DNA from: Patescibacteria group bacterium
GTDB lineage: Bacteria > Patescibacteriota > Minisyncoccia > Phycocordibacterales > PALSA-1337
Reading direction: 5' to 3'
Length of the DNA: 64,000 nucleotides
NCBI GenBank assembly: GCA_018971685.1
Contig: JAGXAG010000002.1
Coordinates: 66,276 to 130,275, forward strand
The notes under the pieces are model-generated. The model was not told the DNA's origin, did no database searches, and saw nothing but the letters and a program-made list of their open reading frames with translations. Shown piece by piece: positions 1 through 53,668 of this stretch. The first letter of the stretch is position 1. Each line of letters begins with the position of its first letter. The position numbers and the translations under genes were made by a program.

Positions 1-90
1 CCGCCCCGGCGAAGTGTTTCCATCTTATCGCTTCGCTCGATGCGGGGAACACTTGTCGCCGGCTCGACGGTCGCCGCCCTGGCGACGTCT
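1..90. repeat. GC-rich palindromic repeat-family copy A, lying inside the topA reading frame
   Basis: Hairpins CCGGCGAAGTGTT / AACACTTGTCGCCGG and GTCGCC-GCCCT-GGCGAC. The core TCGCTTCGCTCG...AACACTT...CTCGACGGTCGCCGC recurs at 48843-48900 and 38070-38090. Confidence 0.5.
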
Positions 91-389
91 TTCTTTGTGA
101 GCAATTCCTTTAAATGCCAGGCAATGGCTTCACCTTCGCGGTCCGGGTCGGTGGCAAGTAATACTTCGTCGGCCTTGACGGCCTCTTTGCGGATCTCGTC
201 GATGACGGTTTGCTTCTTGGGCACGATCTCGTAACGGGGAATAAAGCCACCTTCGATGTCGACGGCTTTCTTGTTTGACTTGGGTAAGTCGCGCACATGT
301 CCGATAGAGGCGCGCACGACGAAATCGTGTCCGAGGTATTTCGAAATTGTTTTCGCCTTCGACGGCGATTCGACGACCAAAAGTTTCAT
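1..389 (-). CDS. topA: DNA topoisomerase I, N-terminal TOPRIM part (partial; the gene continues past the window start). The frame was found by hand and is not in the ORF track.
   Basis: Minus-strand translation from ATG (complement of 387-389) gives MKLLVVESPSKAKTISKYLGHDFVVRASIGHVRDLP...ATDPDREGEAIAWHLKELL, which carries the canonical TopA TOPRIM motifs. The last ~30 codons (nt 1-90) are GC-rich repeat sequence and do not align to TopA. Confidence 0.75.
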   Translation of the reverse strand, partial: MKLLVVESPSKAKTISKYLGHDFVVRASIGHVRDLPKSNKKAVDIEGGFIPRYEIVPKKQTVIDEIRKEAVKADEVLLATDPDREGEAIAWHLKELLTKKDVARAATVEPATSVPRIERSDKMETLRRG

Positions 390-450
390 TGCCACAGTAT
401 TGCACGAATGAATTGCCGAAGTCAAAAAAATCTGGTAAATTGACGATATT

Positions 451-523
451 CCGCCCATAGCTCAGCCGGTAGAGCACTCGCCTCTTAAGCGATTGGTCGT
501 TGGTTCAAATCCAACTGGGCGGA
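451..523 (+). tRNA. tRNA-Lys (anticodon CTT)
   Basis: Cloverleaf folded by hand: acceptor CCGCCCA/TGGGCGG, D-arm GCTC..GAGC, anticodon loop CTCTTAA, T-arm GTTGG-TTCAAAT-CCAAC, discriminator A. CCA is not encoded. Confidence 0.85.
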
Positions 524-533
524 CATGGGATGA

Positions 534-641
534 GTTTACAGTTTACAATGAAAAGTTATTAGTGGAATTAATAATTATTAATTGATAGTTAACTATAAGC
601 TTGTCACTTAAATTAATAACTTTTCATTGTAAACTGTAAAC
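534..641. repeat. Nested palindrome: perfect 28-bp inverted repeats at 534-561 and 614-641, flanking an 18-bp palindrome (566-583, AATTAATAATTATTAATT) and a 12-bp palindrome (585-596, ATAGTTAACTAT)
   Basis: The reverse complement of 534-561 (GTTTACAGTTTACAATGAAAAGTTATTA) equals 614-641 exactly. The element lies between tRNA-Lys and tRNA-Leu. Confidence 0.8.
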
Positions 642-650
642 TTGTAACAC

Positions 651-732
651 GCCGGGGTGGCGAAATTGGTAGACGCACTTGGCTTAGGACCAAGCGGAGT
701 GATCCATGGAGGTTCGAGTCCTCTCCCCGGCA
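651..732 (+). tRNA. tRNA-Leu (anticodon TAG), long variable arm
   Basis: Acceptor GCCGGGG/CCCCGGC, D-loop AAATTGGTAGA, anticodon stem CTTGG/CCAAG with loop CTTAGGA, T-loop TTCGAGT, discriminator A. Confidence 0.85.
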
Positions 733-810
733 CAAAAGTGCAAAAAACGAAAAATTGCCCCTTTCCGGAGATTCCGAATTTTTCAGACTTTTGTAAGGTT
801 CGAACTTCGT

Positions 811-2112
811 TCAGGAATCGGCACCCAAAAAGATAGGATAGTCTTGTATCCTCGTTGTTTCTTTCGGCTTTACGCTGTGGAACCAATAGAAATACAGCGC
901 GGCATTCATAGCCATAAAGGCCGCGCTCGCAAAGAACGGCAATTCGAGTTCACCCATGCTTATCCAAATCCCGGAGATTGCAGGCGATACCGCCGAAGGG
1001 ATCCGTCTGGCCACGCCCGATATGCCTGCTGTCGTTCCGCGAAGGTCGGCATCGACGATTCCCATCGTGTACGCCTGTCTGACAGGCATAGCCCCCATCG
1101 CGCCGGCCATTCGGAGTATCACGAAAACCGCGGCAAGGCCGAAGCCGGGCATGACCGGAATGAGCGCGGTACAAATAACGCCGAACACTCGCGAGGCTGT
1201 GATGACTTTGATATCGCCGAAACGCCTTGCCATGTGCGCCATCCAAAGCGACGAGAATGACGCGAGCACCGAACTCGCGCCAATGACTGGTCCAATTATC
1301 ACCGGCGACACGCTGAATCGCAAATAAAGAAGATACGGGAGGATGCCCCCGACGAAGCCTATCCCAAAACCGTTGACCATTCCCGCTACAGAGATCTTCC
1401 AGATCATGTGGACACTCTCCTTTCTGCTCATCAATTTCTTTTCTGAATTATGGACGCCCGCCTTATGCCTGTCGACGGTCTCCTTGATCGGCCACAGAAG
1501 AAAAAATGTAACAATTCCCACAATAGTGACTCCGAAGAACAGCGGCCGGTAGGAAATTATGAGGGGCGAAGCGTAGACGCTCCGTATCATTTCCGGCAGG
1601 CCGGCAAGCAACGTGCCGAGCGCCATCGCGAATGTCCCGACCGCGCTGTTGATGCTGAATACCATGTTCCGGTTATCAAGCGTTGTTTTTTCGGAGAGGA
1701 GCGCCACCTCCGCCGGGGCGAATGGTCCCGCCTGGCCGCCCGCTCCTCCGCCGCGTCCGAGCCCGCCGAGCGCGCTCACGGCGATCAGAACGAATGGCAC
1801 CGAGGTGAAACTGAAGACAATCCCGGAAAGCGCGAGAAGCACGGAATAGGCGAGCAGGAACGGCTTTCTGCCGTACCGGTCGCTCGCGATACCGGTCGTA
1901 AGCGTAAGCAACGCGCTCACAGCACTGCCGATTCCGAGCGTGAGCCCGATGAGCCATGGCGAAAAGCCGATCTGCGCGAGATAGATGGCGAATACTACCA
2001 GAATATATCCCTGCACCAGACTCCGGAGTCCTCGAACAACGACCAAGCGCCGAAGGTCTTTTGTGGGAAGCAGCTCACGAAACCGGCCCATGAGGTTTTT
2101 CATGATTCGCAT
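811..2112 (-). CDS. MFS transporter
   Basis: 433-aa ORF with ~12 hydrophobic segments and the MFS signature GIASDRYGRKP. A GC-rich Gly-rich segment (GGLGRGGGAGGQAG) sits in the central loop. Confidence 0.8.
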   Translation of the reverse strand: MRIMKNLMGRFRELLPTKDLRRLVVVRGLRSLVQGYILVVFAIYLAQIGFSPWLIGLTLGIGSAVSALLTLTTGIASDRYGRKPFLLAYSVLLALSGIVFSFTSVPFVLIAVSALGGLGRGGGAGGQAGPFAPAEVALLSEKTTLDNRNMVFSINSAVGTFAMALGTLLAGLPEMIRSVYASPLIISYRPLFFGVTIVGIVTFFLLWPIKETVDRHKAGVHNSEKKLMSRKESVHMIWKISVAGMVNGFGIGFVGGILPYLLYLRFSVSPVIIGPVIGASSVLASFSSLWMAHMARRFGDIKVITASRVFGVICTALIPVMPGFGLAAVFVILRMAGAMGAMPVRQAYTMGIVDADLRGTTAGISGVARRIPSAVSPAISGIWISMGELELPFFASAAFMAMNAALYFYWFHSVKPKETTRIQDYPIFLGADS

Positions 2113-2255
2113 GGATATTCCGACATTGGATTGATGATTATTATTTGCATATATCTGTCGACTGCTCTTTCTTAATTAATTAATTATACCAAAGAACGCG
2201 GGTTGACATACTTTTCTCTAAAGAATATGGAAACCATTAGCGCATAAGTACCATT

Positions 2256-2284
2256 TGTTGAATCGTCAATAAGCAAGGTACAAT
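2256..2284 (+). promoter_or_regulatory. Putative sigma70-type promoter (-35 TGTTGA/TTGTTG, -10 TACAAT at 2279-2284) directly upstream of the GTG start at 2291, implying a leaderless transcript
   Basis: Hexamers read from the sequence with 17-18 nt spacing. There is no RBS. Confidence 0.3.
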
Positions 2285-2290
2285 GACCGT

Positions 2291-2866
2291 GTGAAAATAG
2301 ACTCATCAGTCTTATTCCTAAAAGCATCACTCGAGAATTTTTGGACGATTGGTAGTGTGGTGCCAAGCTCGTCATATCTGGCAAAGAAGATGGCGATGCC
2401 CATAGCAAGCAAGCCGAAAATGGTCGTTGTTGAGCTCGGCGCCGGCACCGGCGCAGTGACGAGATGTTTGCTCAAAGTTTTGCCGAGTGACGCCAGATTG
2501 TTCTCTTTGGAATTGAATGCGACATTGGCTGACCGCTTGTCGAGAGATATCAGCGACAAGCGCCTAGAATTGATAGTCGAAAACGCTTGCAACCTGGAGA
2601 GTGTTCTAAAAGAAAGGGAAGTAAGCAAAGCTGATTACATAATTTCCGGATTGCCGCTCGGAAGCATTCAGGAAGATGGCAGGCAAGAAATATATCGAAA
2701 TATTCACGCCTGCCTCGAGCCCGGCGGCCTCTATATCCAGTTTCAATATTTTATGGCAAACTTTATCGAGATCAAGAAACATTTCAAGGTCTGCAAAGTC
2801 GCCTTCGAATGGCGCAACTTTCCGCCGGCGTTCATATACAGTTGCCGATTGCGCTCCGGACGATAA
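2291..2866 (+). CDS. Class I SAM-dependent methyltransferase, PmtA-like (phospholipid N-methyltransferase family)
   Basis: Motifs IGSVVPSS, VVELGAGTGAVT (SAM-binding glycine loop), IISGLPL and GGLYIQFQY match the PmtA-like family. The start codon is GTG. Confidence 0.65.
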   Translation: MKIDSSVLFLKASLENFWTIGSVVPSSSYLAKKMAMPIASKPKMVVVELGAGTGAVTRCLLKVLPSDARLFSLELNATLADRLSRDISDKRLELIVENACNLESVLKEREVSKADYIISGLPLGSIQEDGRQEIYRNIHACLEPGGLYIQFQYFMANFIEIKKHFKVCKVAFEWRNFPPAFIYSCRLRSGR

Positions 2867-2915
2867 AAATATAGAATCTGATAGGTCCTTGAATTGAAAC
2901 GCGAATTGAAAAAAC

Positions 2916-2989
2916 GGCCTAGTGGCGAAGTCGGTCAACGCGGCGGTCTGCAAAACCGCTATGCGCCGGTTCGATCCCGGCCTAGGCCT
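2916..2989 (+). tRNA. tRNA-Cys (anticodon GCA)
   Basis: Acceptor GGCCTAG/CTAGGCC, anticodon stem GCGGT/ACCGC with loop CTGCAAA, T-arm GCCGG-TTCGATC-CCGGC, discriminator T. Confidence 0.8.
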
Positions 2990-2994
2990 CATTT

Positions 2995-3085
2995 GCCCGG
3001 GTGGCGGAATTGGTAGACGCCACAGACTTAAAATCTGTTGATCCTTTGTTGGGTCGTGCCGGTTCGATTCCGGCCCCGGGCACCA
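2995..3085 (+). tRNA. tRNA-Leu (anticodon TAA), long variable arm, 3' CCA encoded
   Basis: Acceptor GCCCGGG/CCCGGGC, D-loop AATTGGTAGA, anticodon stem ACAGA/TCTGT with loop CTTAAAA, T-arm GCCGG-TTCGATT-CCGGC, discriminator A, then CCA (3083-3085). Confidence 0.85.
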
Positions 3086-3130
3086 TTGATCTGCACCTGA
3101 TCCGTACCCCGTTTAGTAGACATTAGTAAA

Positions 3131-3457
3131 ATGGCACTTACTCAATCAGATAAAATTAAATATAACAAAGAAGATGTGATTAGTCACCATGGCGTAGCTG
3201 CGGTGATTAAAAACATAGCTGGTGAGGTCTTGATGCAAGAGCATGTCAAATATGGCTTTTGGACTATACCTGTCGGAAAGGTCAAGAATGATCAGAGTGT
3301 CCTTGAAGGATTAAGACAGGAGATTCTAGAGGAATGTAATTTACATATTAAGGAAGCTAAAGAATTGATCGTCAAAGATTATTATTACGAAAGGAATGGG
3401 AACAGAGTTAAGGTCACTAGTCATTTGTTTGAGATAAAAAATATGAGGGTGAGATGA
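3131..3457 (+). CDS. Small NUDIX-fold protein with a degenerate Nudix box
   Basis: A VAAVIKNIAGEVLMQ beta-strand followed by GFWTIPVGKVKNDQSVLEGLRQEILEECNL. This matches GX5EX7REUXEEXGU except Q for the first E and a shifted R. Confidence 0.5.
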   Translation: MALTQSDKIKYNKEDVISHHGVAAVIKNIAGEVLMQEHVKYGFWTIPVGKVKNDQSVLEGLRQEILEECNLHIKEAKELIVKDYYYERNGNRVKVTSHLFEIKNMRVR

Positions 3458-3621
3458 AGAATCTCGAACCTGCCAAGCATAGACAGCAGATATTTATGTC
3501 TATCGATAGAATACGACAATTACCTTATCTATCTGATTTGACTTTGTTATATCTGCATCAGATCGGAATCGATAGACCAGCTAAGATTTAAATCGCGACA
3601 CGATTTTCATTCTCGCGAAAC

Positions 3622-3649
3622 TTCACAAAACGGTTTGGGTTGGTACAAT
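3622..3649 (+). promoter_or_regulatory. Putative promoter (-35 TTCACA 3622-3627, 16-nt spacer, -10 TACAAT 3644-3649) ending 6 nt before the ATG at 3656, implying a leaderless mRNA
   Basis: Read directly from the sequence. The upstream region 3480-3580 carries direct repeats of ATCGATAGA. Confidence 0.4.
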
Positions 3650-3655
3650 TTTGGT

Positions 3656-4501
3656 ATGAAGAAGCACGAGGACAAAGCCATAGCCATATTCGAGGGCAGC
3701 CAAATTCGCAGACATTGGGACGCGGACAAGGAGCTTTGGTATTTTTCGGTAGTAGATATAATAGCAGTGCTCACTGAGAGCGTTGACCCATTTGCTTATT
3801 GGAGAAAACTAAAGGAAAGGTTGTTCAAAGAGGGCGGAAACGAAACCGTGACAAAATGTCACGCTTTGAAAATGGTGGCTGCAGACGGAAAAATGAGGCT
3901 AACTGACGCCGCCGATACCGAAACCATGCTCCGTCTCATCCAATCGATTCCATCCCCAAACGCCGAACCGTTCAAACTTTGGCTGGCTCGCGTAGGTTAC
4001 GAGAGACTCGAAGAAACCGCTGATCCTGAATTAGCCATAAATCGCGCGCTGAAGACATATTTGCGCAAGGGTTACAGTCCGGAATGGGTTAATCAACGAT
4101 TGAAGAGCATAGAAATACGCAAGGCTCTGACCGATGAGTGGGAAAATAGGGGAATGAAGGAAGGTATTGAGTTTGCGATACTGACTGATGAAATCACCAA
4201 AGCCTGGTCGGGTCTTACCACAAGACAATATAAAAAACTGAAAGATCTGAAGAAAGAGAATCTTCGAGACAATATGACAAACATTGAATTAGTCCTGAAT
4301 ATGCTGGCAGAAACGGCGACTACGGAGATTTCCAAAAAGAAGGAGCCTAAAGATTTGGAAGAAAACAGGACGGTTGCCAGGGAGGGTGGCGGTATAGCCG
4401 GAAACGCCAGGAGACAAATAGAGGGAAAGACCGGTAAGAAAGCTATTTCTGATTATAATTTTAGAAAAGACCGGGAAAGGAAAAAGTTAAGGGGAAATTG
4501 A
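3656..4501 (+). CDS. dinD: DinD-like DNA-damage-inducible protein with an N-terminal Bro-N/KilA-N-like domain
   Basis: The N-terminus KAIAIFEGSQIRRHWDADKELWYFSVVDIIAVL matches Bro-N. The C-terminal half (KKLKDLKKENLRDNMTNIELVLNMLAETATTEISKKKEPKDL...AREGGGIAGNARRQIE) parallels E. coli DinD. The ORF-track start at 3635 is a TTG; the ATG at 3656 is preferred. Confidence 0.6.
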   Translation: MKKHEDKAIAIFEGSQIRRHWDADKELWYFSVVDIIAVLTESVDPFAYWRKLKERLFKEGGNETVTKCHALKMVAADGKMRLTDAADTETMLRLIQSIPSPNAEPFKLWLARVGYERLEETADPELAINRALKTYLRKGYSPEWVNQRLKSIEIRKALTDEWENRGMKEGIEFAILTDEITKAWSGLTTRQYKKLKDLKKENLRDNMTNIELVLNMLAETATTEISKKKEPKDLEENRTVAREGGGIAGNARRQIEGKTGKKAISDYNFRKDRERKKLRGN

Positions 4502-4804: not shown

Positions 4805-4835
4805 TGTTATACCATTGATAACTAATCACTGTAAA

Positions 4836-6449
4836 CTACTTCTCCACCGTCCTTACCGCTTCTATCCTGTCTCCGACCGCAATTTCGACTTTTGCCTCAA
4901 CCATCACCCCGAATTCGTGTCCTTCGGCCACCTCGCTCGTTCTCAGTTTCTTTTCCTGGAGCTCGCGAATTTTGCCCCTGCCGATTTCCGCATCGCGGCG
5001 CATTATCCTGACCTCGTTGCCTGTCGAAATGATACCCGTTTCCACTTTGCCGCCCACGACTTGCCGGTCTTTCTCCTTGGAAAATATCGCCAGAATTTTG
5101 GCGCGGCCCGTCGATTCCTCAATGTATTCTTTCGGCACGCGCGCCAGTAGGGCGTTGCGCACGAATTCCGACAATTCGTATATGATCGAGAAATTTTTCA
5201 CTTGAATGGGGGAGCGCTCGATTATAGCCGCCGCTTTCTTGTCCGGTTCCGCGTTGAAGCCGACGATGACAATGTTTTCCGGATCGCCCAGCGCCGTCTT
5301 CGCGTCTTTTTCATTGATACCGCCGATACCCTCCGAAACAATTTTTATTTTCACTTTGTCATGCTCGATTTTGCCAAGCTCGAATTTCACGCCGTCCAAG
5401 CTACCGACAGTATCGGCTTTAAGGATTATAGGAAAATATATTATTTTGGGCGTTTCCGCCGCCTCGTCATCAGTAAAGGAATCCGAGGGACGCCTCGGAG
5501 GCCGCGAAGGCGGCCGAGAGCCAGCCGCGCCTAGAGCAGTCGGCGACGGCGTGTCCATCGGATCCTTTGCAGATGACGAGGCGGCGCTCCCCGTCAATCT
5601 CTCCGCATCCTTCTTGGATCCTACAGTTACGAATATATCACCGCAGGCCGGCACTTCATTCCAGCCTGTAATAACTACTGGCGTTGAAGCCGTCGCTTTC
5701 TCTATTTTATCACCCTTGAAATCCTCAATGAACCTGACCGGCGAATAAGCTGTGCCGGTCACCACGAATTTGCCGACTTCGAGCACGCCATCTTTCACTA
5801 TGAGCGTGGCGGAAATGCCTTTGCGCGGATCAAGCTCCGATTCGACAACCACACCCTCGGACGGTTTGTTCGGGTCGGCTTTCAGATCGGCCAATTCTGC
5901 AACCAGTATGACCATATCGAGAAGCTCTGAGACACCGGTTCCATTCAAGGCCGAAATGGCAACGCATGGTATATCGCCGCCCCAACCTTCGACATAGATC
6001 TCATTTTCGCCCAGGCTCTGCTTGGCGCGATTTATATCGGCATTCGGCTTATCAATTTTGTTTATTGCGACCACGAATGGAATGCCGGCCGATTTTATCT
6101 CCTTGTATGCTTCTATCGTCTGCGGCTTAACCCCGTCTTCCGCTGATACCACCAATATGGCGATATCGGCCGCTTTGGCGCCGCGTTCGCGGATACCGCA
6201 AAAGGCTTCGTGTCCGGGCGTGTCCAGAAATGTGACGGTATGCTTTTTTTCAGTGCCGGTATTATTGTCTTTGGAAATATGTTCAACCTGGTATGCTCCG
6301 ACATGCTGAGTGATGCCGCCCGCTTCGCCGGCCACAATGTTCGACTTCCTGATGTGGTCGAGCAGGGTTGACTTGCCATGGTCGATGTGACCCATGACGA
6401 CGACTATAGGAGGCCGCTTAACGCGGCCCTTTTCGTGATTATTGGACAT
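4836..6449 (-). CDS. infB: Translation initiation factor IF-2 (short form without the N-terminal domain)
   Basis: G1 GHIDHGKST, G3 DTPGHEAF, G4 NKIDK, a beta-barrel domain II and the C-terminal domains. A Pro/Ser/Arg-rich low-complexity linker (aa ~290-340) is encoded by a GC-rich repeat-like segment. Confidence 0.9.
   Translation of the reverse strand: MSNNHEKGRVKRPPIVVVMGHIDHGKSTLLDHIRKSNIVAGEAGGITQHVGAYQVEHISKDNNTGTEKKHTVTFLDTPGHEAFCGIRERGAKAADIAILVVSAEDGVKPQTIEAYKEIKSAGIPFVVAINKIDKPNADINRAKQSLGENEIYVEGWGGDIPCVAISALNGTGVSELLDMVILVAELADLKADPNKPSEGVVVESELDPRKGISATLIVKDGVLEVGKFVVTGTAYSPVRFIEDFKGDKIEKATASTPVVITGWNEVPACGDIFVTVGSKKDAERLTGSAASSSAKDPMDTPSPTALGAAGSRPPSRPPRRPSDSFTDDEAAETPKIIYFPIILKADTVGSLDGVKFELGKIEHDKVKIKIVSEGIGGINEKDAKTALGDPENIVIVGFNAEPDKKAAAIIERSPIQVKNFSIIYELSEFVRNALLARVPKEYIEESTGRAKILAIFSKEKDRQVVGGKVETGIISTGNEVRIMRRDAEIGRGKIRELQEKKLRTSEVAEGHEFGVMVEAKVEIAVGDRIEAVRTVEK
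5485..5570. repeat. GC-rich palindromic repeat-family segment inside the infB linker
   Basis: Nested hairpin CTCGG-AGG-[CCGC-GAAG-GCGG]-CCGAG. It shares CTCGGAGGCCG with the pyrD copy and GTCGGCGACGG with copy A. Confidence 0.45.
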
Positions 6450-6511
6450 TGTTACTACGATACCACGCGAGTAGGGTAGTTGACAAATAATGTGATCTAC
6501 AGCACCGTTTT

Positions 6512-6944: not shown

Positions 6945-6983
6945 GATTCAATCCATGACCCAATCATAGCGCGGTCTGGATTA

Positions 6984-24901: not shown

Positions 24902-25828
24902 TCACAACCCTTCCCCTTTCAACCTTTCAATCAATTCTTGCGCCTGCCTGCTCAACTTCTTGGGCATATTCACATGTGTGACAATAAGGAGATCGCCGCG
25001 TTTATTGCCGTATGGCACGCCCTTGCCTTTCAGGCGAAGAATTTCGCCGTGGGTAGTGCCTTGGGGGATCTTGAGTTCAATGTTGCCGTCGAGAGTCTCT
25101 ATCTCGATAGTGCCGCCCAGAAGCGCCGTGGACAATCTCACATTCAGATTCATGACTAGATGGAATCCTTCCTTCCTGATACTCGGGTGCTCTTTTACCC
25201 AGATTCTGACTACTAGGTCGCCGGGTATTCCATTTTGGTCGTTCGAAGGCTCGCCTTTGCCTGCGATTCGCAGACCTTGGCCGTTCTCTATGCCGGGCGG
25301 GATCTTGACCAGCAGCCTTTCCTTCCTACCCCCGACGACGACCTCTTTTTCAACGCCGAATACAGATTCCTTGAATGAAATTTCCATGTCCACGGTTATG
25401 TTCTTGCCTCTTCTGGCATGTTTCCTGCCGCCGAAAAATTCGCCGAATATGTCGCCCAAGTCGAATTCCACGCCCTGGCCGCCGGTAAAATTAGAGAAAT
25501 CAAAATGAAATCCTTGTCCGTTCGTGCCTTGGGTTGAGAATCCTTGGAAACCGTGGCCGAAATCAAATCCGCCGAATCCTTGTCCGGCGGCGCCGGCATT
25601 CGGGTTGAATCCATGACCAGCAGAGCCGAACATGTCATACTGCTTGCGCTTGTTGTCATCCGACAGCACCGAATACGCCTCGCTCGCCTCCTTGAAGCGC
25701 TTTTCTGCCTCCGGATTGCCCTTGTTCTTGTCCGGATGATTCTCGTGCGCCAACTTCCTGAACGCCTTTTTGACATCGTCCTTGGAGGCGCTTTTGTCCA
25801 CCCCCAGAATTTTGTAGTAGTCTTTCAT
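24902..25828 (-). CDS. dnaJ: J-domain co-chaperone, DnaJ/CbpA type without a zinc-finger domain
   Basis: J-domain with HPD (DYYKILGV...HPDKN), a G/F-rich region and two C-terminal beta-sandwich domains. No CxxCxGxG repeats are present. Confidence 0.8.
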   Translation of the reverse strand: MKDYYKILGVDKSASKDDVKKAFRKLAHENHPDKNKGNPEAEKRFKEASEAYSVLSDDNKRKQYDMFGSAGHGFNPNAGAAGQGFGGFDFGHGFQGFSTQGTNGQGFHFDFSNFTGGQGVEFDLGDIFGEFFGGRKHARRGKNITVDMEISFKESVFGVEKEVVVGGRKERLLVKIPPGIENGQGLRIAGKGEPSNDQNGIPGDLVVRIWVKEHPSIRKEGFHLVMNLNVRLSTALLGGTIEIETLDGNIELKIPQGTTHGEILRLKGKGVPYGNKRGDLLIVTHVNMPKKLSRQAQELIERLKGEGL

Positions 25829-25904
25829 ATTAATTCTTTCTTAAGTTTTATGGTGACCGTTCCTTTCACCCTACCATAAGCACGCTTTCTTACTTCTTCT
25901 CCTT

Positions 25905-25955
25905 GAACTCTGCCCCTCACCCTCGCTTTGCTCGGGTTCGGGGCCTGGAGTTTTT
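25905..25955. repeat. GC-rich repeat-family fragment in the dnaK-dnaJ spacer
   Basis: CCTCGCTTTGCTCGGGTTCGGGG resembles copy A TATCGCTTCGCTCGATGCGGGG. The flanks are AT-rich. Confidence 0.4.
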
Positions 25956-25962
25956 TGTTAAT

Positions 25963-27876
<1,914 letters not shown>

Positions 27877-34593: not shown

Positions 34594-35532
34594 TTATACA
34601 AGACTCTTCTCCTTCCTGAAAATCAATAGCCGAAATACGGTTATGGGTTTGCTTCCATGCATATCGATGCTCTTTGTTAACTTAAAACCGGCCTTATTCG
34701 CTGCTTCGACGATATCTCCTAAGGGTCGAAAAATGTCATAGATAGTCCCTTCCTCGTAAACAGTTTTCGGCGTTTCCATACTCAGCGATTTGTGTGGCCG
34801 CTCCGAATTGTAGAAGTCGAAGTAGGCGGCGAGATTCAATCTTGCATCCTCAATATTTTCATACGACTTGATGTACACGTCCTCATACTTCACTGATCTC
34901 CACAACCTTTCCGTAAAGATGTTGTCCATGCACCGGCCTCTGCCGTCCATGGATATCTTCACGCCGTTTCCAGCGAGCAATCCGGTGAAATCATCGCCGG
35001 TGAATTGGCTGCCCTGGTCCGTGTTGGAGATTTCCGGCGCACCATACGTTTCAATCGCCGTTCTCATTGCCCCGACGCAGAAGTCAGATTCCATGGTATG
35101 CGACAGCGCCCAGCCGACGACATATCTGCTCCACCAGTCGAGGATGGCATACAGGTAACAGAAGCCATGAGCCAGTCGAATGTAGGTGATGTCACTGCCC
35201 CAGATGTGGTTCGGGTGCTCGGGACCGATATGCCGCAGAAGGTACGGGTAGAGTTTGTGGTTTGGGTTTTTAACGCTTGTTTTCTTCGTTTTTGGGTAGA
35301 TCGCCTCCAAACCCATGAGGCTCATCAGCCGGCGCACATGGTCGCGGCCAATCGTAACGTCGTATTTCTTTCCAAGATCATGCCGGATGCGGCGGGAGCC
35401 GTAGAAGGGGCGCTTGGTAAAGATTTCGTCGATTGCCTTCATAATTGCGATGTCGGCTTCGTTCACCCTTGGCTCGTAGTAGAAGCTGGCCCTGGAGATT
35501 CCGAGAAGCCCTGTCTGCCTGGTGATGCTCAT
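34594..35532 (-). CDS. IS3-family transposase OrfB (integrase core, DDE)
   Basis: HIWGSDITYI ... DQGSQFT ... ERLWRSVKYE, the rve-domain catalytic triad context. Confidence 0.85.
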   Translation of the reverse strand: MSITRQTGLLGISRASFYYEPRVNEADIAIMKAIDEIFTKRPFYGSRRIRHDLGKKYDVTIGRDHVRRLMSLMGLEAIYPKTKKTSVKNPNHKLYPYLLRHIGPEHPNHIWGSDITYIRLAHGFCYLYAILDWWSRYVVGWALSHTMESDFCVGAMRTAIETYGAPEISNTDQGSQFTGDDFTGLLAGNGVKISMDGRGRCMDNIFTERLWRSVKYEDVYIKSYENIEDARLNLAAYFDFYNSERPHKSLSMETPKTVYEEGTIYDIFRPLGDIVEAANKAGFKLTKSIDMHGSKPITVFRLLIFRKEKSLV

Positions 35533-37284: not shown

Positions 37285-37363
37285 AAAAACGCCTTGCGTC
37301 CGGTTGCTCGTTGTAGCTCCGGATGCAGGCTTGGGCGAGGATTCCAACAGGGGATCCTTGCCC
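37285..37363 (-). terminator. Structured GC-rich 3' region of pyrD: a 10-bp hairpin (37333-37363) plus a short hairpin CGCAAGGCG followed by T5 (37285-37298)
   Basis: Hairpins and a U-tract read on the minus strand between the pyrD stop and the gap promoter. Confidence 0.35.
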
Positions 37364-37401
37364 ATTTTTAATCAAATTATATTTGAATCCTGACAAAATA
37401 T

Positions 37402-38532
37402 TCATAACATATTGATGTCAGACTTCTGTAAAATATTTTTTATCAATCCAGGACCGCCAAAAATCATCCCCGTAATGAGCTGCAGCAAATCCGCTCCGGC
37501 CTTGAATTTTGCCGCGGCATCTTCTGGCGACATAACGCCGCCGGCTCCTATAATAGTGAACCGCTTGCCGTAAGTTTGCCGCGTCTTCCGGATCAATTCG
37601 TCGGACAACTTGGCGCACGGCTTGCCGGAAAGGCCGCCTTGATATTCCGGCGGCGCTTCCCCGCCGACATCGAGCGAGCCGTAATCTTTATTCAGGTTGC
37701 CGATAACGACGCCGTTGAGCCCGTACATGTCGATGATATCGAGCAAGGCCTTGAATTGGTCCCAGGCCAAATTTATCGGCATTTTGACATAGACGGGTTT
37801 GTTGCAAGGTATTTGCTTCAGTCGAGCCAACAATTTATCGAGTAGTTCCGGCGTGGCGAACGCCTCGCCACCAAAGGCGTTCGGGCACGAAATGTTGATG
37901 GTGTAATAGTCGCCGACATTTTCCTCGTTTAGTCGCCTGAATGAATAGGCGTAATCTTCGACGCCGGTTTCAACTGTCGCGGATTTTTCGTCGTTCGTGC
38001 GCGCTATCGATATTCCCACTACAAACCCAGCCTCCCCCTTCCCGCCGCAACGAAATGTCTCGCATCCGGCTTCGCTTCGTTCGACACCTGTCGCCCGCTC
38101 GGAGGCCGAGGCGGCTGTCGCATGGACTGCTTTTAAACGCTCGATTATCACATCAACGCCATCGTTCTTAAGACCTTTATTGACAACGATGCTGCGTGAC
38201 TTGGGCAACCTCTGTAGGCGCGGCTTGGGATTGCCGGCACACGGCCGCGCAGTCACCGATCCAACTTCTTCGCCGCCAAATCCGACGCATGGCAATATTC
38301 CGCACAAACGCGCATTGTAATCAAAACCGGCGGCCAGCAATACGGGTGTACGATATTTTATCCCGTCCACGGTTTTACCGATGTCTCGGCCGTTATATCC
38401 GTAAATCATATTGGTTGCGGCGCGCGTGATCTCGTGATCACCCAAAAATTCCCCGAAATTGATGAATCGGTCGTGGACAAATTCAGGGTCAAAACGGAAA
38501 AGTATCGGCTTCAACAATTTTCGGTACAACAT
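37402..38532 (-). CDS. pyrD: Dihydroorotate dehydrogenase (quinone), class 2, with a ~30-aa in-frame insertion
   Basis: An N-terminal membrane-association helix, GFGGEEVGSVTARPCAGNPKPRLQRL, NISCPN, and GGLSGKP...IIGAGGV. The segment ATAASASERATGVERSEAGCETFRCGGKGEAG sits between conserved blocks LKAVH and FVVGISIARTND. Confidence 0.85.
   Translation of the reverse strand: MLYRKLLKPILFRFDPEFVHDRFINFGEFLGDHEITRAATNMIYGYNGRDIGKTVDGIKYRTPVLLAAGFDYNARLCGILPCVGFGGEEVGSVTARPCAGNPKPRLQRLPKSRSIVVNKGLKNDGVDVIIERLKAVHATAASASERATGVERSEAGCETFRCGGKGEAGFVVGISIARTNDEKSATVETGVEDYAYSFRRLNEENVGDYYTINISCPNAFGGEAFATPELLDKLLARLKQIPCNKPVYVKMPINLAWDQFKALLDIIDMYGLNGVVIGNLNKDYGSLDVGGEAPPEYQGGLSGKPCAKLSDELIRKTRQTYGKRFTIIGAGGVMSPEDAAAKFKAGADLLQLITGMIFGGPGLIKNILQKSDINML
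38040..38130. repeat. GC-rich palindromic repeat-family copy inserted in frame in pyrD
   Basis: CCGGCTTCGCTTCGTTCGACACCTGTCGCCCGCTCGGAGGCCGAGGCGG shares TCGCTTCG(CTCG)TTCGACAC with the groES-groEL spacer copy and has a CTCGG-AGG-CCGAG hairpin. Confidence 0.5.
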
Positions 38533-47076: not shown

Positions 47077-47142
47077 TAGTTTTTGCTTATTTATTAATTG
47101 TTATTAAGCGAACAACATTATTCTACCATCTTTTACAAAATA

Positions 47143-48807
<1,665 letters not shown>

Positions 48808-48811
48808 TTAC

Positions 48812-48902
48812 ATCCGCGGCTCCCTCCTCGGCGCGACTAAGTGTCTCACATTCGCTTCGCTCGTTCGACACTTCTTGCCGCCTCGACGGTCGCCGCTGGA
48901 GT
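48812..48902. repeat. GC-rich repeat-family copy filling the groES-groEL spacer
   Basis: TTCGCTTCGCTCGTTCGACACTTCTTGCCGCCTCGACGGTCGCCGCTGG is ~85% identical over ~55 nt to window 28-84 (inside topA) and shares the TCGCTTCG..TTCGACAC core with the pyrD copy. Confidence 0.55.
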
Positions 48903-49220
48903 CTATCTTATAATAGCTAATATTTCACTTTCCCTGACTATGTAATATTCCTCCTCTCCGACCTTTATTTTATCTCCCCACTGGAAAAGCACTTCGCTGC
49001 CGACTTTGACCGATACAGGCGTCAGTTTACCGTCCTCTACTTTGCCCGGCCCGACCGCTACTACTTCGCCCTTTTTGCTGCCTTTGTCTTCATTGGCAGT
49101 AACCGGAATGATGATGCCGGTCGAAGTTTTGCGCTCCTTTGATTCGGTGTCTTCTTTTATTAAGACCCTATCCGAAAGCGGTTGTAATTTGATTTTCGTC
49201 TCTTTTGTCTCTTTTGACAT
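48903..49220 (-). CDS. groS: Co-chaperonin GroES (Cpn10)
   Basis: KLQPLSDRVLIKEDTESKERKTSTGIIIP ... GEVVAVGPGK. Confidence 0.9.
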   Translation of the reverse strand: MSKETKETKIKLQPLSDRVLIKEDTESKERKTSTGIIIPVTANEDKGSKKGEVVAVGPGKVEDGKLTPVSVKVGSEVLFQWGDKIKVGEEEYYIVRESEILAIIR

Positions 49221-49272
49221 GTTTTTTGCTTTTTGCCTTGAATTAATTGCTGATAATATTTAGGTGTGCACT

Positions 49273-49300
49273 ATTATAATCTATAATTTTTCGTTGGCAA
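49273..49300 (-). promoter_or_regulatory. Putative groES promoter (minus strand: -35 TTGCCA, 16-nt spacer, -10 TATAAT). No CIRCE element is evident.
   Basis: The reverse complement of 49273-49300 reads TTGCCAacgaaaaattatagatTATAAT. Confidence 0.4.
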
Positions 49301-49382
49301 GTCAGACATTTGGCTGCTTCGGCATTTTCAAATTGTAACCTATTTGCATCACAAAATCATCTGTGCTATATTAGCATCGTCA

Positions 49383-49604
49383 ATGAAATCAGTCCTCCCC
49401 TACCTGGAAATCATCCTTTCCGTTATAATGATTGGAGCAATCCTGTTACAGAGAACCGGCGCGCAGGTGGGCGGCGCGTTCGGCGGCAGCGACAACTGGA
49501 GTACTGCGTATCACACCAGGAGAGGAGTCGAAAAGTGGCTGTTCGTTATAACCATCGTGTGCGCGATATTGTTCGCGGCGGCGGCGTTGGTAAATCTGAT
49601 ATGA
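49383..49604 (+). CDS. secG: Preprotein translocase subunit SecG
   Basis: IGAILLQRTGAQVGGAFGGSDNWSTAYHTRRGVEKWLFVITIVCAILF matches the SecG pattern (LLQ..KG.G.G..FGG) between two TM helices. The ATG at 49383 is preferred. Confidence 0.65.
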   Translation: MKSVLPYLEIILSVIMIGAILLQRTGAQVGGAFGGSDNWSTAYHTRRGVEKWLFVITIVCAILFAAAALVNLI

Positions 49605-49715
49605 CCGAATACATTATTTGTTTTACAAATTCCTAATTTTTAATTAACCTAATTTCTAAGAAATACCCAGGTCCCAATCTCCAATTTGATCATCGGTCAT
49701 TAGTCATTGTTTAGA

Positions 49716-49742
49716 TCAATTAGGCTAATTAGGTCAATTAGA
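49716..49742. repeat. Three exactly abutting 9-bp direct repeats (TCAATTAGG / CTAATTAGG / TCAATTAGA). Further ATTAG motifs upstream (49700-49710) continue the ~9-bp phase.
   Basis: Read directly from the sequence, ending 17 nt before the GTG start of the ABC substrate-binding protein gene. Confidence 0.6.
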
Positions 49743-49759
49743 AATTCAGAAACCTCAAA

Positions 49760-51565
49760 GTGCCAGAATCCACCCAAAAAGAGTTCCGCTTCAAACGCGG
49801 TTCAAGAGCGCTCGGATACATAAAAAAGTTCTCCGCCACCGAGAAAGTCGTTTTCGGCGTGTTTGTAATTCTAGCTTTGGTGACTGCGCTCTCCATGGCC
49901 GTTCGCGCCGCCGACAACTTCATGGTACTGATACCTGCCTACGGTGGCACTCTGCGCGAAGGGGTCGTCGGCTTGCCCAGGACGATCAATCCCGTGCTGG
50001 CTGTAACCGATGTTGACAGGGATCTGACGGCGCTTGTTTATTCCGGATTGATGAAATACCAAAATGGCAACCTTGTTCCGGATATCGCCAAGTCTTATGA
50101 CATCTCTAAAGACGGCTTGACATACGATTTCAAACTGAGAGACGATGTTTATTTTCAAGACGGCAAACCACTAAACGCAGACGACATTGAATTCACGGTG
50201 CAAAAAATACAAGATCCAAACTTGAAAAGCCCTAGACGCGCCGATTGGACCAATGTCATCGTTAAAAAGATAAGCGATTATGAAATACAATTCATCTTGA
50301 AACAAGCCTATTCCCCGTTTCTTGCCAACACGACCATCGGCATATTGCCCAAGCATGTTTGGGGTAATATAAGCGACGACCAATTCATTTTCAGCCAATA
50401 TAATACCGATCCGATCGGATCCGGACCTTATAAAATCGCCGGCATGGCGCGCGATCAAGGCGGCATTCCCACTGAATACGATCTGGAGACATGGAAGTCG
50501 TACTACGGCAAGGAGCCATACATTCCTTCGCTCGTCTTTGATTTTTATTCCGACGCCGATAAGATCGTCACGGATCTCGGCGCCGGCAAAATAGACTCAG
50601 CCGCCGCCATCGCACCAGAAACGGCCGCTAATCTGGCAAGCGATTTGGCACAGCCGTATACGGTGTTGTCGGCGCCAATGCCGCGAATTTTCGGAGTGTT
50701 TTTCAACCAAAACCAAGCACCGGTTTTGGCCGATGCGACGGTCAGACAAGCTTTGGATATGGCTGTTGACAGAGACGCTATTATCGCCAGAGTGCTCGAT
50801 GGTTACGGCATACCCGCCGACGGGCCTTTGCCGGCCGGATTTCTAGAAAACGCAACCGATACTCGATCCGCCCCCTTGAATAGCGACATAGCCACCAGTG
50901 CACCCGCCGCGACCACTTCGGCCGAATCTTTACGGAAGATATCCGATGCGCAATCGCTATTGCAAAATAAAGGCTGGGCCATGGACAGTAATGGCTTCTT
51001 AGCCAAGAAATCAGGCAAAACGACCAACGAGCTTGCCTTTGACATATACACCGCCGATTCACCGGACCTGAAATCCACAGCCGAAATGGTCAGGGACGCT
51101 TGGACCAAACTTGGCGCCAAAGTCAGCGTCAAAGTCTTTGAGACCGGCGATCTGTATCAGAATGTCATCCGCACCCGCAAGTACGACGCCCTTCTTTTCG
51201 GCGAGCAGATCGGCAAGGACGGCGATCTCTATGCCTTCTGGCATTCTTCGCAAAGAAATTCGCCGGGCTTGAATGTGGCCATGTACGCCAACAGCAAAGT
51301 CGACAAGGTATTGGAGGATTTGCGCTCGTCGACCGATCCGGCGACCCGCGTCGGCGACTATGCCAAACTGGAACAAATGATCAGTGCCGACACGCCAGCG
51401 GTATTCCTTTATTCGCCGGATTTCATTTATGCCGTACCGAAAACGCTGAGCGGCATAACCTTGGATTCGATCACAACGCCGACGGACAGATGGAACTCAG
51501 TTTCCAACTGGTACTTGGATACGGAAAAAGTATGGAAGATGTTCGCCAACAATCGGATCGAGTAA
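49760..51565 (+). CDS. ABC transporter substrate-binding protein, family 5 (oligopeptide/nickel type), membrane-anchored
   Basis: N-terminal TM anchor and SBP_bac_5 collinearity (DKDGLTYDFKLRDDVYFQDGKPLNADD, GSGPYKI). GTG start. Confidence 0.8.
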   Translation: MPESTQKEFRFKRGSRALGYIKKFSATEKVVFGVFVILALVTALSMAVRAADNFMVLIPAYGGTLREGVVGLPRTINPVLAVTDVDRDLTALVYSGLMKYQNGNLVPDIAKSYDISKDGLTYDFKLRDDVYFQDGKPLNADDIEFTVQKIQDPNLKSPRRADWTNVIVKKISDYEIQFILKQAYSPFLANTTIGILPKHVWGNISDDQFIFSQYNTDPIGSGPYKIAGMARDQGGIPTEYDLETWKSYYGKEPYIPSLVFDFYSDADKIVTDLGAGKIDSAAAIAPETAANLASDLAQPYTVLSAPMPRIFGVFFNQNQAPVLADATVRQALDMAVDRDAIIARVLDGYGIPADGPLPAGFLENATDTRSAPLNSDIATSAPAATTSAESLRKISDAQSLLQNKGWAMDSNGFLAKKSGKTTNELAFDIYTADSPDLKSTAEMVRDAWTKLGAKVSVKVFETGDLYQNVIRTRKYDALLFGEQIGKDGDLYAFWHSSQRNSPGLNVAMYANSKVDKVLEDLRSSTDPATRVGDYAKLEQMISADTPAVFLYSPDFIYAVPKTLSGITLDSITTPTDRWNSVSNWYLDTEKVWKMFANNRIE

Positions 51566-51622
51566 ATCGGAAATAGTAGATGAGAAACAAATTACAAATA
51601 ACAATTTGAAAAATAAAAGGTA

Positions 51623-53668
51623 ATGAACAATCAATCAAACAATTACAATAGACGCCGCCCGGCTCAATTCCGGCCACGGCGACCGTTCGTACGCCAGGTC
51701 CAGACCAGGATTTTGCGACAGGAAACACCGTCTGCAAATGCTCAAAGCGCGTCTACGACGAATAAAATACCAGATCCATTTTCGGCGCAACACACCCACC
51801 GGATCGTGATGGGCCGCGGCGCCAGCAAAGTTTTTGCCAAGAGATTCGAAGATAAAACGGGTGGCGAAGGCTTGAGGCCGCGCAAGCATGTCGCCGGCGC
51901 CCGAATGAGCATAATGCGCAAAGCCCCTCGAATGGCCAGGCGCCCGGCGCCGCGGCATTTGGTATCGAAGCGCGAAGACGATATCATCCCGCCGCTCGCG
52001 GACGGCGCCATCAGGATAATACCATTGGGCGGCGTCGAGGAAGTCGGCCGCAACATGACCGCCATCGAACATAAAGGCGACATCATCATCGTAGACATGG
52101 GCTTCCAATTCAAGGAAGAAGGCACGCCGGGCATCGATTACATCCTACCCAATACCAAATATCTGGAGGAACGGACAAACATGATCCGCGGCGTTTTCAT
52201 CACTCACGGACACCTCGACCATATCGGCGGCATTCCTTATATCATGCCTCGGATCGGCAATCCGCCCATTTACTCCAGGCAATTCGGAGCGATCATGATC
52301 CAAAAGCGCCAAGCTGAATTTCCGAATGTGCCGCCTTTGGACATGAAAGTGCTGGACAAGAATGAAACCGTGGCGATAAGCCCAAATATGAAAGTCGAGA
52401 CTTTCGCTATTTCGCACACCATTCCGGACTCGATGGGGCTCATCATCCACACATCGGTCGGAGACATCGCATTCATCGAAGATGTTCGCGTCGACAATAT
52501 AAACGGCGCTGTTACCGAAGAAGAAGAGAAACAGTACGAAAGATTCAAAGGCAAGAAGATGCTCTTGCTCACCATGGATTCGACTTCGATCGAAAAGCAC
52601 GGTTTCTCGCTCTCCGAGAGCACGGTCACGGAGAACATCGAAAAGATCATCAAAGTGTCTTCCGGCAGGATCATCATAGGCACTTTCGCATCGCAAGTGG
52701 AACGTATCGTGAATATCGTCAAGATCGCCGAAAAATACAACAAGAAGATCGCCGTCGAGGGCCGCAGCATGAAAACAAACATCGAAATCATCCAGCAACT
52801 GAAACTCGCCAAAATCTCGAACATAATTCCGGTCGAAGATATCGAAAATTATCCGCCCGACAGGATCATAATGTTGGTAACCGGCGCGCAGGGCGAAGAA
52901 TTCGCGGCCTTGATGCGCATTGCCAACAAGTCGCACAAATATATCCGCTTGCGCCCGACAGACACGATCGTTCTGTCGTCGTCGATCATTCCGACGAATT
53001 ACATGTCTGTCGTCAAGCTCAAAGACAACCTGTACCGCTCGGAGGCAAAAGTCATTACTTATCTCGATTCGGACATTCACGCTTCTGGGCACGGCAACCG
53101 CGGCGAATTGAAATGGATCCACGAACATATCGACTACAAGTTTTTTATGCCGGTGCACGGCAACCATTACATGTTGCGCCAGCATGCGGAATTGGCACAG
53201 TCGCTCGGCAAACCGAGAGAAAACATCGTGGTTCCGGACAACGGGTCGCTCATCGAAATCGACCCTGAAGGCAACAAGGTCACGGTACGCAAAGAAAAAG
53301 CGCCTTCTGGCCTGGTGATGGTTGACGGCTTTTCGGTCGGCAATGTGCAGGATGTCGTTATTCGCGATCGCCAAGCGCTGGCGCAAGACGGCATATTCAT
53401 CGTCTTCGGCATCATTAACGCCTCGACGGGCAAGCTCAAGAAGTCGCCGGATATCATTTCGCGCGGATTCGTCTATCTGCGCGAGTCGCAAGAACTGCTG
53501 TACGAAGTGCGCCAAATCATCAAAGAGACGGTCGAGCGCGCCGCGCGCGGCATGAATCCGATCAATATTGATTTTATCAAAGACAGTGTCTCCGACGCAG
53601 TCTCCAAATACCTCCTGCAAAAAACCGCCAAACGCCCGATGGTCATTCCGGTCATTTTGACGATTTGA
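51623..53668 (+). CDS. rnj: Ribonuclease J (beta-CASP metallo-beta-lactamase) with a ~125-aa basic Arg/Pro-rich N-terminal extension
   Basis: IIPLGGVEEVGRNMTAIEH, HxHxDH motif FITHGHLDHIGG, beta-CASP and C-terminal domains. The N-terminal extension is encoded by GC-rich patches with repeat-family-like sub-motifs. Confidence 0.85.
   Translation: MNNQSNNYNRRRPAQFRPRRPFVRQVQTRILRQETPSANAQSASTTNKIPDPFSAQHTHRIVMGRGASKVFAKRFEDKTGGEGLRPRKHVAGARMSIMRKAPRMARRPAPRHLVSKREDDIIPPLADGAIRIIPLGGVEEVGRNMTAIEHKGDIIIVDMGFQFKEEGTPGIDYILPNTKYLEERTNMIRGVFITHGHLDHIGGIPYIMPRIGNPPIYSRQFGAIMIQKRQAEFPNVPPLDMKVLDKNETVAISPNMKVETFAISHTIPDSMGLIIHTSVGDIAFIEDVRVDNINGAVTEEEEKQYERFKGKKMLLLTMDSTSIEKHGFSLSESTVTENIEKIIKVSSGRIIIGTFASQVERIVNIVKIAEKYNKKIAVEGRSMKTNIEIIQQLKLAKISNIIPVEDIENYPPDRIIMLVTGAQGEEFAALMRIANKSHKYIRLRPTDTIVLSSSIIPTNYMSVVKLKDNLYRSEAKVITYLDSDIHASGHGNRGELKWIHEHIDYKFFMPVHGNHYMLRQHAELAQSLGKPRENIVVPDNGSLIEIDPEGNKVTVRKEKAPSGLVMVDGFSVGNVQDVVIRDRQALAQDGIFIVFGIINASTGKLKKSPDIISRGFVYLRESQELLYEVRQIIKETVERAARGMNPINIDFIKDSVSDAVSKYLLQKTAKRPMVIPVILTI

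Follow-up and report, generated by a model that had tools for sequence, protein, structure and literature searches.

We describe a GC-rich, hairpin-forming DNA repeat that is dispersed through a 64,000-nucleotide stretch (positions 66,276 to 130,275 of contig JAGXAG010000002.1; hereafter the window) of a genome from the Patescibacteria, or Candidate Phyla Radiation (CPR). Three loci of the window carry this repeat, which we call family 1. They lie at positions <1-88 in topA, 38021-38126 in pyrD and 48809-48912 in the groES-groEL spacer, all in identical orientation on the + strand. We propose that family 1 is most probably a non-autonomous, selfish palindromic DNA repeat that has increased in number and been maintained within a clade of Patescibacteria, in the manner of the Rickettsia palindromic elements (RPEs). 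A preliminary description of the window, made from its letters, had suggested a dispersed GC-rich hairpin family that resembles RPEs and is inserted in frame in essential genes. This suggestion holds, and data from beyond the window add strength to it. The finding is real, RPE-like behaviour extends to CPR, and the earlier reading is essentially correct with a shortened list of members.

Membership was assessed by using each locus as a single-sequence nhmmer query against the whole 64 kb window. The groESL copy finds the pyrD copy with an E-value of 2.5e-4 and the topA copy with 8.6e-4, and the pyrD copy finds the groESL copy with 7.5e-5. The topA-pyrD pair is the weakest (E ~0.4). Used as queries in this way, the infB, dnaK-dnaJ, RNase J and MFS segments matched only themselves. 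Repeat finding joins positions 49-77, 38084-38112 and 48868-48896 as one repeat group (D2). A hidden Markov model (HMM) made from the three sequences detected no further copy in the 64 kb. With the family HMM, nhmmer gives E-values of 4e-13 for the topA copy, 7.6e-19 for the pyrD copy and 9.5e-25 for the groESL copy. A covariance model (CM) built from 18 family-1 copies scores them at 28.3 bits (topA, cut by the window start), 84.2 bits and 107 bits, respectively. The three window loci are thereby confirmed as a real repeat family beyond chance. Five loci had originally been grouped together. The topA, pyrD and groESL loci stand by nhmmer and CM; the infB locus is another palindrome, and the dnaK-dnaJ locus is marginal. 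The motif positions quoted at the time are exact, and the host gene identities are upheld by Pfam or orthologue alignment.

The first copy (1-88) is of a subtype with a long inner stem. It is inserted in topA, antisense and in frame. This gene is on the - strand, has its start codon at 389, extends past the window start and is identified by Pfam or orthologue alignment. The window start removes about 25 nt of the element. The complete copy is found on a contig that is 99.98% identical to the window (L043, 13431-13558; CM 49.8 bits), and the peptide it adds to TopA is approximately DVARAATVEPATSVPRIERSDKMETLRRGGEKVATK. The second copy (38021-38126) is also antisense and in frame, within pyrD (37402-38532, - strand; PF01180 and orthologue alignment). 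This is an older, decayed copy with 66-75% identity to other copies, and its hairpin no longer beats shuffled sequences (z ~0). The third copy (48809-48912), of a short-loop subtype, is antisense to its operon and occupies the entire spacer between groES (48903-49220, - strand, Pfam Cpn10; stop at 48903) and groEL (47143-48795, - strand, Pfam Cpn60; start at 48795). It takes up everything between the groES stop and a point about 15 nt short of the groEL start. On the mRNA, i.e. the - strand, it forms a hairpin with a folding free energy (dG) of -44.1 kcal/mol and a z-score of -4.4.

Family 1 is not confined to the window. A degenerate 25-mer of the right arm was scanned against 185,579 bacterial and archaeal genomes, one per species, and gave 26 matches. 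Half of these (13/26) fall in three metagenome-assembled genomes (MAGs) of Patescibacteria, namely CAYHFU01 (nine), CAYHQT01 (two) and CAZIUH01 (two). The remaining 13 occur one each in GC-rich genomes and represent chance background. A stricter pattern recovered 11 contigs from JGI/ENA metagenomes, mostly from the Hainich groundwater well H43. An HMM from the collected copies produced 33 matches, which reduce to 23 non-redundant copies; CAYHQT01 and JGI metagenome 3300036760 each add one more, within an IF2 gene. The copies are drawn from the genome of the window and from four other Patescibacteria MAGs or metagenome populations. The search for copies beyond the window, which the preliminary description had advocated, has thus revealed enrichment in three Patescibacteria MAGs and not chance sharing of k-mers. 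No family-1 match was found in phage, plasmid or IMG/VR sequences that might serve as a vector.

A PyrD identical to that of the window is encoded on MAG GCA_028865255.1 and by Logan assemblies from two sequencing runs, and MAG GCA_028870795.1 is 99.98% identical to the window over 13.5 kb. The element is therefore not an assembly artefact. In other genomes, identity reaches 100% over 98 nt among four copies from unrelated places, namely a tRNA spacer, FtsK and two other sites. Long-stem copies show 96-98% identity among PyrG, L009 and the two in SecA. This suggests recent multiplication in those genomes. The family-1 copies of the window are older than these. The groESL copy has 85-89% identity to copies of CAYHFU01. 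Orthologous genes of the window and CAYHFU share 68-72% DNA identity overall and 42-47% at third codon positions. As the identity of the element far exceeds that of third codon positions, it is either under constraint or passed from one lineage to another.

Many copies reach a contig end or come to within about 100 nt of one (L009, L011, L017, L019, L025, L028, L030, L031, L036, L038 and L040). This suggests that the family-1 repeat breaks short-read assemblies of its MAGs, and may explain why some MAG contigs end at element positions. The element-bearing MAGs are labelled 'Candidatus Saccharibacteria', and the nearest named orthologues of the window PyrD and IF2 belong to Paceibacterota, Parcubacteria or Taylorbacteria. 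Because these labels conflict, we refer to the hosts as Patescibacteria and give no finer placement.

The core of the element measures about 95-130 nt and has a GC content of about 65%, in a genome of 47.5% GC (as measured in the window). Its consensus on the + strand is CCGCCTCTCCCTCCTCGGCGCGACGAAGTGTCTCACATTCGCAAGCTCGTTCGACACTTGTCGCCGCCTCGACGGTCGAGGCGG. The entire unit forms one long imperfect hairpin, of which the conserved outer part reads CTCCCTCCTCGGCGCGACGAAGTGT ... ACACTTGTCGCCGCCTCGACGGTCG. RNAalifold identifies 23 consensus pairs, six of them with compensatory changes. In 18 full copies, 96.6% of cells are paired, and 27 cells are changed on both sides of a pair, versus 7.9 +/- 2.0 in shuffles; controls with a slid register all fall far below the true register. 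The conserved fold that had been anticipated for the consensus is thus confirmed, with covariation above both the shuffled and the slid controls. The two strands show similar numbers of wobble-type departures (9 vs 6 cells), so the fold is not bound to a single orientation of the transcript. By fold energy, family-1 copies are not extreme in a hairpin scan of the whole window.

Around this conserved part the element is modular. The outermost stem varies by subtype yet stays complementary, as CCGCCTC/GAGGCGG, CCGTTTC/GAAACGG or TCAGGCGAAGTTTC/GGAACTTCGCCTGA. The ends of the element, TCAGGCGAAGTTTC ... GGAACTTCGCCTGA in long-stem copies and CCGCCTC ... GAGGCGG with compensatory variants in short-loop copies, are inseparable from the stem. 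Three apical modules were distinguished: a short loop (GTGTCTCACATTCGC..GCTCGTTCGACAC), a long inner stem (GTGTTTCCC..GCTTCGCTCGCGTCGGGAAACAC), which is present in the topA copy of the window, and a further form in L016 and L037. In CAYHFU01 and on the Hainich contigs, two further hairpins usually come after the element, so that a mosaic of about 215-240 nt arises. The second hairpin is short (GGCTAACGC..GCGTCAGCC). The third belongs to a hairpin family of its own of about 85 nt (GCCGCGCCCGCAGGCGAGAACAGTCCTCCGCGAGGAGCTTGCGACGAGACGGAGGAGCTGTTGTCGCCGAGAGGGCGCGGG; 10 matches), which is absent from the window and occurs at L041 7210-7300 as well as in L007, L008, L017, L025, L031, L033 and L037. 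Judging from the open frame, it would be translated in frame in the PyrD of CAYHFU01.

Copies inside genes affect a range of proteins. The host frame is preserved in PNPase (L011), PyrG (L028) and SecA, where L027 carries one copy and L035 two, one per orientation. PyrD of L041 has a composite insert of about 67 aa in frame, and in-frame copies are found in IF2 (L044, L045 and protein P0123) and in pyrD and topA of the window. In FtsK (L025), the open reading frame (ORF) ends at the contig end, which makes the downstream frame unreadable. Genic copies occur in both orientations, usually with one reading frame per orientation. Sense copies usually read ..SPSSARRSVS..TLVAASTVE.., and antisense copies ..TVEAATSV..ETLRRAEEGE... 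Exceptions are L041, which starts in another frame and returns via a 1-nt difference in the loop, and the antisense copy L037b, which has a frame shift near its end. Five of the six frames of the consensus are open by our own reading, so an open frame alone is weak evidence. However, the conserved domain downstream is in frame in every genic copy with readable downstream sequence, and the earlier statement that the genic copies keep the host frame open is upheld to that extent. The predicted tryptic peptides of the inserts include SVSHSQAR, ETLVAASTVETSPSNE and AEEGETSPEVADTGLDK. A word-indexed search for the sense and antisense insert peptides among 5.8 billion protein sequences returned nothing at E <=1e-3, the segments being too short for such a search.

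Orthologues without the element allow the insertion sites to be located. Most PyrD orthologues (343-356 aa) have no insert and pass directly from IIERLK to FVxGISIARTN. Loop lengths across PyrD proteins fall into two modes; the median is 11 aa, and 12 of 100 loops have 25 aa or more. Likewise, 11 TopA orthologues (54-71% identity) are devoid of the ~35 aa that follow WHLKELL, and SecA of L027 is devoid of the first insert of L035. For pyrD and topA, the segment is thus missing from orthologues at exactly the positions that had been predicted. The closest relative of the window PyrD (65% identity; CAYHFU01, L041) carries the element in the same loop, inverted with respect to the window. The two insertions are independent events at a single permissive site. 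In an AlphaFold2 model of the window PyrD, the insert is placed between a helix (126-147) and a strand (171-176), and residues 149-167 have a predicted local distance difference test (pLDDT) score below 50. As modelled for PyrD, to which this statement is limited, the insertion site appears to fit the fold of the host protein; the site in IF2 is a linker of 0-80 aa.

The intergenic copies occupy tight spacers inside operons in either orientation. They are found between rplJ and rplL (L010), in tRNA spacers (L008), between co-directional gene pairs (L012, L016 and L017) and, in the window, between groES and groEL. No terminator-like T-run is present. The inverted repeat CIRCE (TTAGCACTC-N9-GAGTGCTAA) has no match in the window with up to three mismatches, and a search of Rfam gave no match at E <=1 at the element loci in the window or in seven other loci. 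The CAYHFU01 contig with the rplJ-rplL copy also encodes a DUF3800-V RNA (L010 6823-6918, - strand; Rfam, 76.9 bits).

Of the loci that had been grouped with family 1 on short motifs, the one in infB (4836-6449, - strand; Pfam families and orthologue alignment) is a separate element. Here, a singleton, near-perfect palindrome of 130 nt lies at 5457-5586, as judged from its inverted repeat and fold energy. Its outer arms of 24 nt are 92% complementary, and its folding is very stable (RNA dG -93.6 kcal/mol, z -8.5; DNA z -8.0). Its in-frame reading gives the hypervariable IF2 linker (GSAASSSAKD...SFTDDEAAE). It has no HMM or CM match to family 1, nhmmer found no relative in 295 kb of fetched loci, and the 11-mer CTCGGAGGCCG that it has in common with the family is at chance level (about two expected by our own estimate). 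We therefore do not retain the infB locus (given earlier as 5485-5570) as a member. Across CPR orthologues, the IF2 linker ranges from 0 to ~80 aa and is unalignable. Three other lineages (L044, L045 and protein P0123) carry a family-1 copy within it and the window another palindrome, which makes the linker an insertion hot spot; in L044, a second hairpin stands beside the family-1 copy. In the closest IF2 orthologue, P0122, the ends of the linker (..TESSSI.. / ..IEDDSTDE..) would be compatible with the same outer palindrome, which is only a hint.

The hairpin in the spacer between dnaK (25963-27876) and dnaJ (24902-25828), both confirmed in identity and on the - strand, is a borderline case. 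It lies at 25896-25967 on the + strand and is genuine by its fold (z -3.6 to -4.7). It is the top CM match among non-members (15.8 bits; E ~0.011 over the window, with a rough calibration), with the outer stem aligned and the inner 49 positions missing. nhmmer does not detect it in the window and finds no relative of it in the 295 kb of fetched loci. The claim of a hairpin at this place therefore stands, its membership is marginal, and an internally deleted relative of family 1 is a plausible reading.

Two further regions had been put forward as possible older, more diverged copies, and this is not supported. Neither the N-terminal region of RNase J (51650-52000; z -2.3, -0.8 and +1.2) nor the loop of the MFS protein (1690-1790; z +1.9) has an HMM or CM signal or is palindromic, and nhmmer found no relatives of either in the 295 kb of fetched loci. 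RNase J itself has an N-terminal extension of ~130 aa ahead of its metallo-beta-lactamase domain (window 51623-52010), which is GC-rich and neither palindromic nor repeat-derived.

Coding palindromes are not restricted to family 1. In two other CPR PyrD genes with long loops, the inserts are long palindromes unrelated in sequence to family 1, of 132 nt in L046 (3403-3534; dG -71 kcal/mol, z -7.5) and 138 nt in L047 (3403-3540; dG -81 kcal/mol, z -7.0). Both have the apical sequence TTCAGCAGAA in common, which encodes ..FQQK.. and ..LQQK.., respectively. Similar peptides are present in several other PyrD orthologues. Coding palindromes hence appear to be recurrent in CPR genomes beyond one family.

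How could such a repeat have spread? We propose that the element multiplies and persists within a clade of Patescibacteria, probably mobilised by a hairpin-recognising enzyme supplied in trans. Because the host genomes are small and densely coding, many insertions would land in genes. Selection would then act as a filter, so that the surviving genic copies add whole codons without a stop, in the one tolerated frame of each orientation. These survivors would sit in loops and linkers that tolerate a flexible segment of 30-45 aa rich in Ser, Ala, Arg and Glu, and it is because of this tolerance that the same places, such as the PyrD loop and the IF2 linker, would be hit repeatedly. The inserts are presumably translated and would be neutral or slightly deleterious rather than functional. 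Intergenic copies may simply be carried along as a hairpin in the operon mRNA. The apical modules are interchangeable, and in some genomes the element travels as a mosaic with two further hairpins. Maintained complementarity and conservation across lineages fit a hairpin that is recognised by a mobilising enzyme; they fit correction of one arm by the other equally well.

Several observations weigh against this proposal. No mobilising enzyme has been identified, and no parent insertion sequence with the ends of the element was found in the sequence read. The only transposase in the window, of the rve (DDE) family, does not have ends that match the element. No direct repeat was recognised at six composite and three SecA copies, where exact boundaries are uncertain, and no exact empty site at the DNA level is at hand for any intergenic copy. 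Translation of the inserts is deduced solely from the preserved frames. The copies were counted on fragments of MAGs. Finally, the compensatory changes and the conservation across lineages could reflect a function of the hairpin for the host.

This last point leads to the question whether the hairpin is mainly a cis-acting RNA element of the host, e.g. an mRNA stabiliser, a processing site, or a device for translational coupling or temperature sensing, with dispersal being secondary. The strong hairpin on the groESL mRNA, the presence of hairpins in both the groES-groEL and dnaK-dnaJ spacers, the retention of the fold through compensatory changes and a conservation between lineages that exceeds neutral sites would all agree with such a role. 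However, the copies occur in both orientations relative to transcription and in unrelated ORFs, tRNA spacers and ribosomal-protein spacers, the wobble departures favour neither strand, and Rfam matches, CIRCE and terminator T-runs are lacking. Moreover, the pyrD copy of the window has lost its fold. Given the two orientations, the unrelated contexts and this decayed copy, we consider a primary RNA function for the host unlikely, although the element may have secondary effects on operon mRNAs. The peptide could instead be the selected unit, i.e. a flexible linker module that CPR proteins have gained repeatedly for their benefit. Most genic copies of each orientation use the same frame and inserts recur at the same loops, as one would expect from such a module. 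Yet many copies are intergenic, the two orientations yield different peptides, and identity lies at the level of DNA, non-coding copies included. In addition, the PyrD insert is modelled as disordered, and unrelated palindromes are found in the same loop. A beneficial peptide module is accordingly an even less probable explanation.

Insertions are known from the rRNA genes of CPR. By analogy, the hairpins might be intervening sequences that are excised from the transcript, so that the inserts never reach the protein. This would spare ribosomes the obstruction that very stable hairpins, such as that of infB, would cause. Every readable genic copy nevertheless keeps the downstream frame and is free of stops in the host frame, while about two thirds of segments should break the frame if removed. 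Furthermore, we know of no bacterial ligation pathway for RNase III-type excision from mRNA. Since frames are always preserved, we regard removal from the mRNA as highly improbable. The simplest alternative is that no family exists and that the loci share GC-rich k-mers or low-complexity coding sequence by chance. GC-rich 50-nt islands are indeed frequent in the window (41 regions of at least 70% GC), and the short motifs that link infB, RNase J and MFS do not rise above chance level. For the three core loci, chance similarity is excluded by nhmmer E-values of ~1e-4 in the window and of 1e-19 to 1e-30 with the family HMM, by identical 98-nt copies in other genomes and by the enrichment of pattern matches in three MAGs, and the probability of this explanation is close to nil. 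It stands for RNase J, MFS and the infB motif link.

The selfish, RPE-like repeat that we favour has close parallels in Rickettsia. In the part of the review PMC10969869 that summarises Ogata et al. 2000 and 2002, RPEs are described as families of ~150 bp, numbered RPE-1 to RPE-10, which lie in frame in housekeeping genes at positions compatible with the protein fold and have no known mobiliser. Like RPEs, family 1 is a dispersed, hairpin-folding family (~100-150 nt) of a small, reduced genome that is inserted in unrelated housekeeping genes with a consistent frame and at fold-compatible positions, and a mobilising enzyme has been named for neither. In contrast to RPEs, which reside in Alphaproteobacteria, family 1 is found in Patescibacteria/CPR, appears unrelated in sequence, is GC-rich relative to its genome and has genic copies in both orientations. 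It is also modular, with interchangeable apical stems and a mosaic arrangement with two further hairpins; the same loops have been hit repeatedly by family 1 and by unrelated palindromes, and operon spacers have been filled as well. Since the host belongs to the Patescibacteria and the element has ~65% GC, common descent with RPEs is implausible, and we regard the two as analogous.

Other palindromic repeats show partial similarity. The repetitive extragenic palindromes (REP) and bacterial interspersed mosaic elements (BIME) of Enterobacteria and Pseudomonas are extragenic units of 20-40 bp with a terminal GTAG or CGTC tag (PMC3733652). They resemble family 1 as GC-rich multicopy palindromes that lie in transcribed operon spacers and form mosaics of several units. 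Family 1, however, is 95-130 nt long, frequently lies within genes and is free of a GTAG or CGTC tag at both ends. Transposable elements of the miniature inverted-repeat kind (MITEs) that overlap ORFs in bacteria include QMITE1 of Coxiella (PMC5896051) as well as Correia, ERIC and Nezha (review PMC10969869). They share with family 1 the short, non-autonomous form, inverted ends, in-frame fusions and a location in transcribed regions. Unlike a MITE, family 1 is self-complementary throughout and not only at its ends, and neither a clear target-site duplication nor a parent insertion sequence was found. The nearest counterpart of the infB palindrome is provided by the coding palindromes that Nematomorpha have in their mitochondria, where long, near-perfect inverted repeats in protein-coding genes are read through (PMC6649704). 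There, both arms encode conserved protein regions and no dispersed family exists, whereas the infB palindrome is located in a hypervariable linker.

Within the full-text literature, of which journal coverage is partial, no paper was found to describe elements of this sort from CPR, Patescibacteria, Parcubacteria or Saccharibacteria; the earlier remark that none was known for this kind of genome agrees with this. Protein-coding palindromic repeats had been described as a peculiarity of Rickettsia, and an unrelated family in CPR suggests that they are a general outcome. Where nearly all of a genome is coding, a hairpin repeat that spreads may be expected to leave tolerated copies in frame within essential genes. 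Such copies could account for some lineage-specific loops and linkers of CPR housekeeping proteins, including the bimodal PyrD loop and the IF2 linker of 0-80 aa. They constitute a natural experiment on which protein sites tolerate insertions of 30-45 aa, and family-1 copies can serve as markers for strain tracking. Existing groundwater metatranscriptomes and metaproteomes could directly test the translation of the inserts.

A more far-reaching possibility, which we put forward tentatively and consider doubtful at present, is that CPR carries diverse modular, GC-rich coding palindromes as a general source of the lineage-specific loops and linkers in its essential proteins. Their hairpin would be actively maintained, through compensatory change and a conservation across lineages that far exceeds neutral sites, and they would move between lineages by a mechanism that depends on the hairpin and leaves no signature of terminal repeats or target duplications. 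The palindromes counted here are family 1, the second hairpin family of CAYHFU, the infB palindrome and the unrelated PyrD-loop palindromes of 132-138 nt in two other lineages.

By the gene list of L002, the rve-family transposase of the window (34594-35532, - strand) adjoins infA; an ORF of 94 aa lies just upstream of it. It shows no recognisable terminal repeats, and no connection with the palindromic element emerged. A similar pair of HTH_Tnp_2 and rve genes follows infB-rbfA in L045.

Besides the infB palindrome, the hairpin scan of the whole window yielded just one other palindrome and terminator-like hairpins. The palindrome is AT-rich and near-perfect, with arms of 42 nt that are 86% complementary, and occupies, at 533-642, the whole spacer between tRNA-Lys (451-524) and tRNA-Leu (651-733). 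Its RNA fold is stable (dG -47.6 kcal/mol, z -9.4), and its sequence is unrelated to the GC-rich family. Two adjacent strong hairpins (z -6.8) occupy the spacer next to pyrD, between it and gap (window 37290-37370). A T-run comes after each of them on one strand, so that the pair looks like a bidirectional terminator. In one assembly (L001), a gene of 59 aa has been called at this position.

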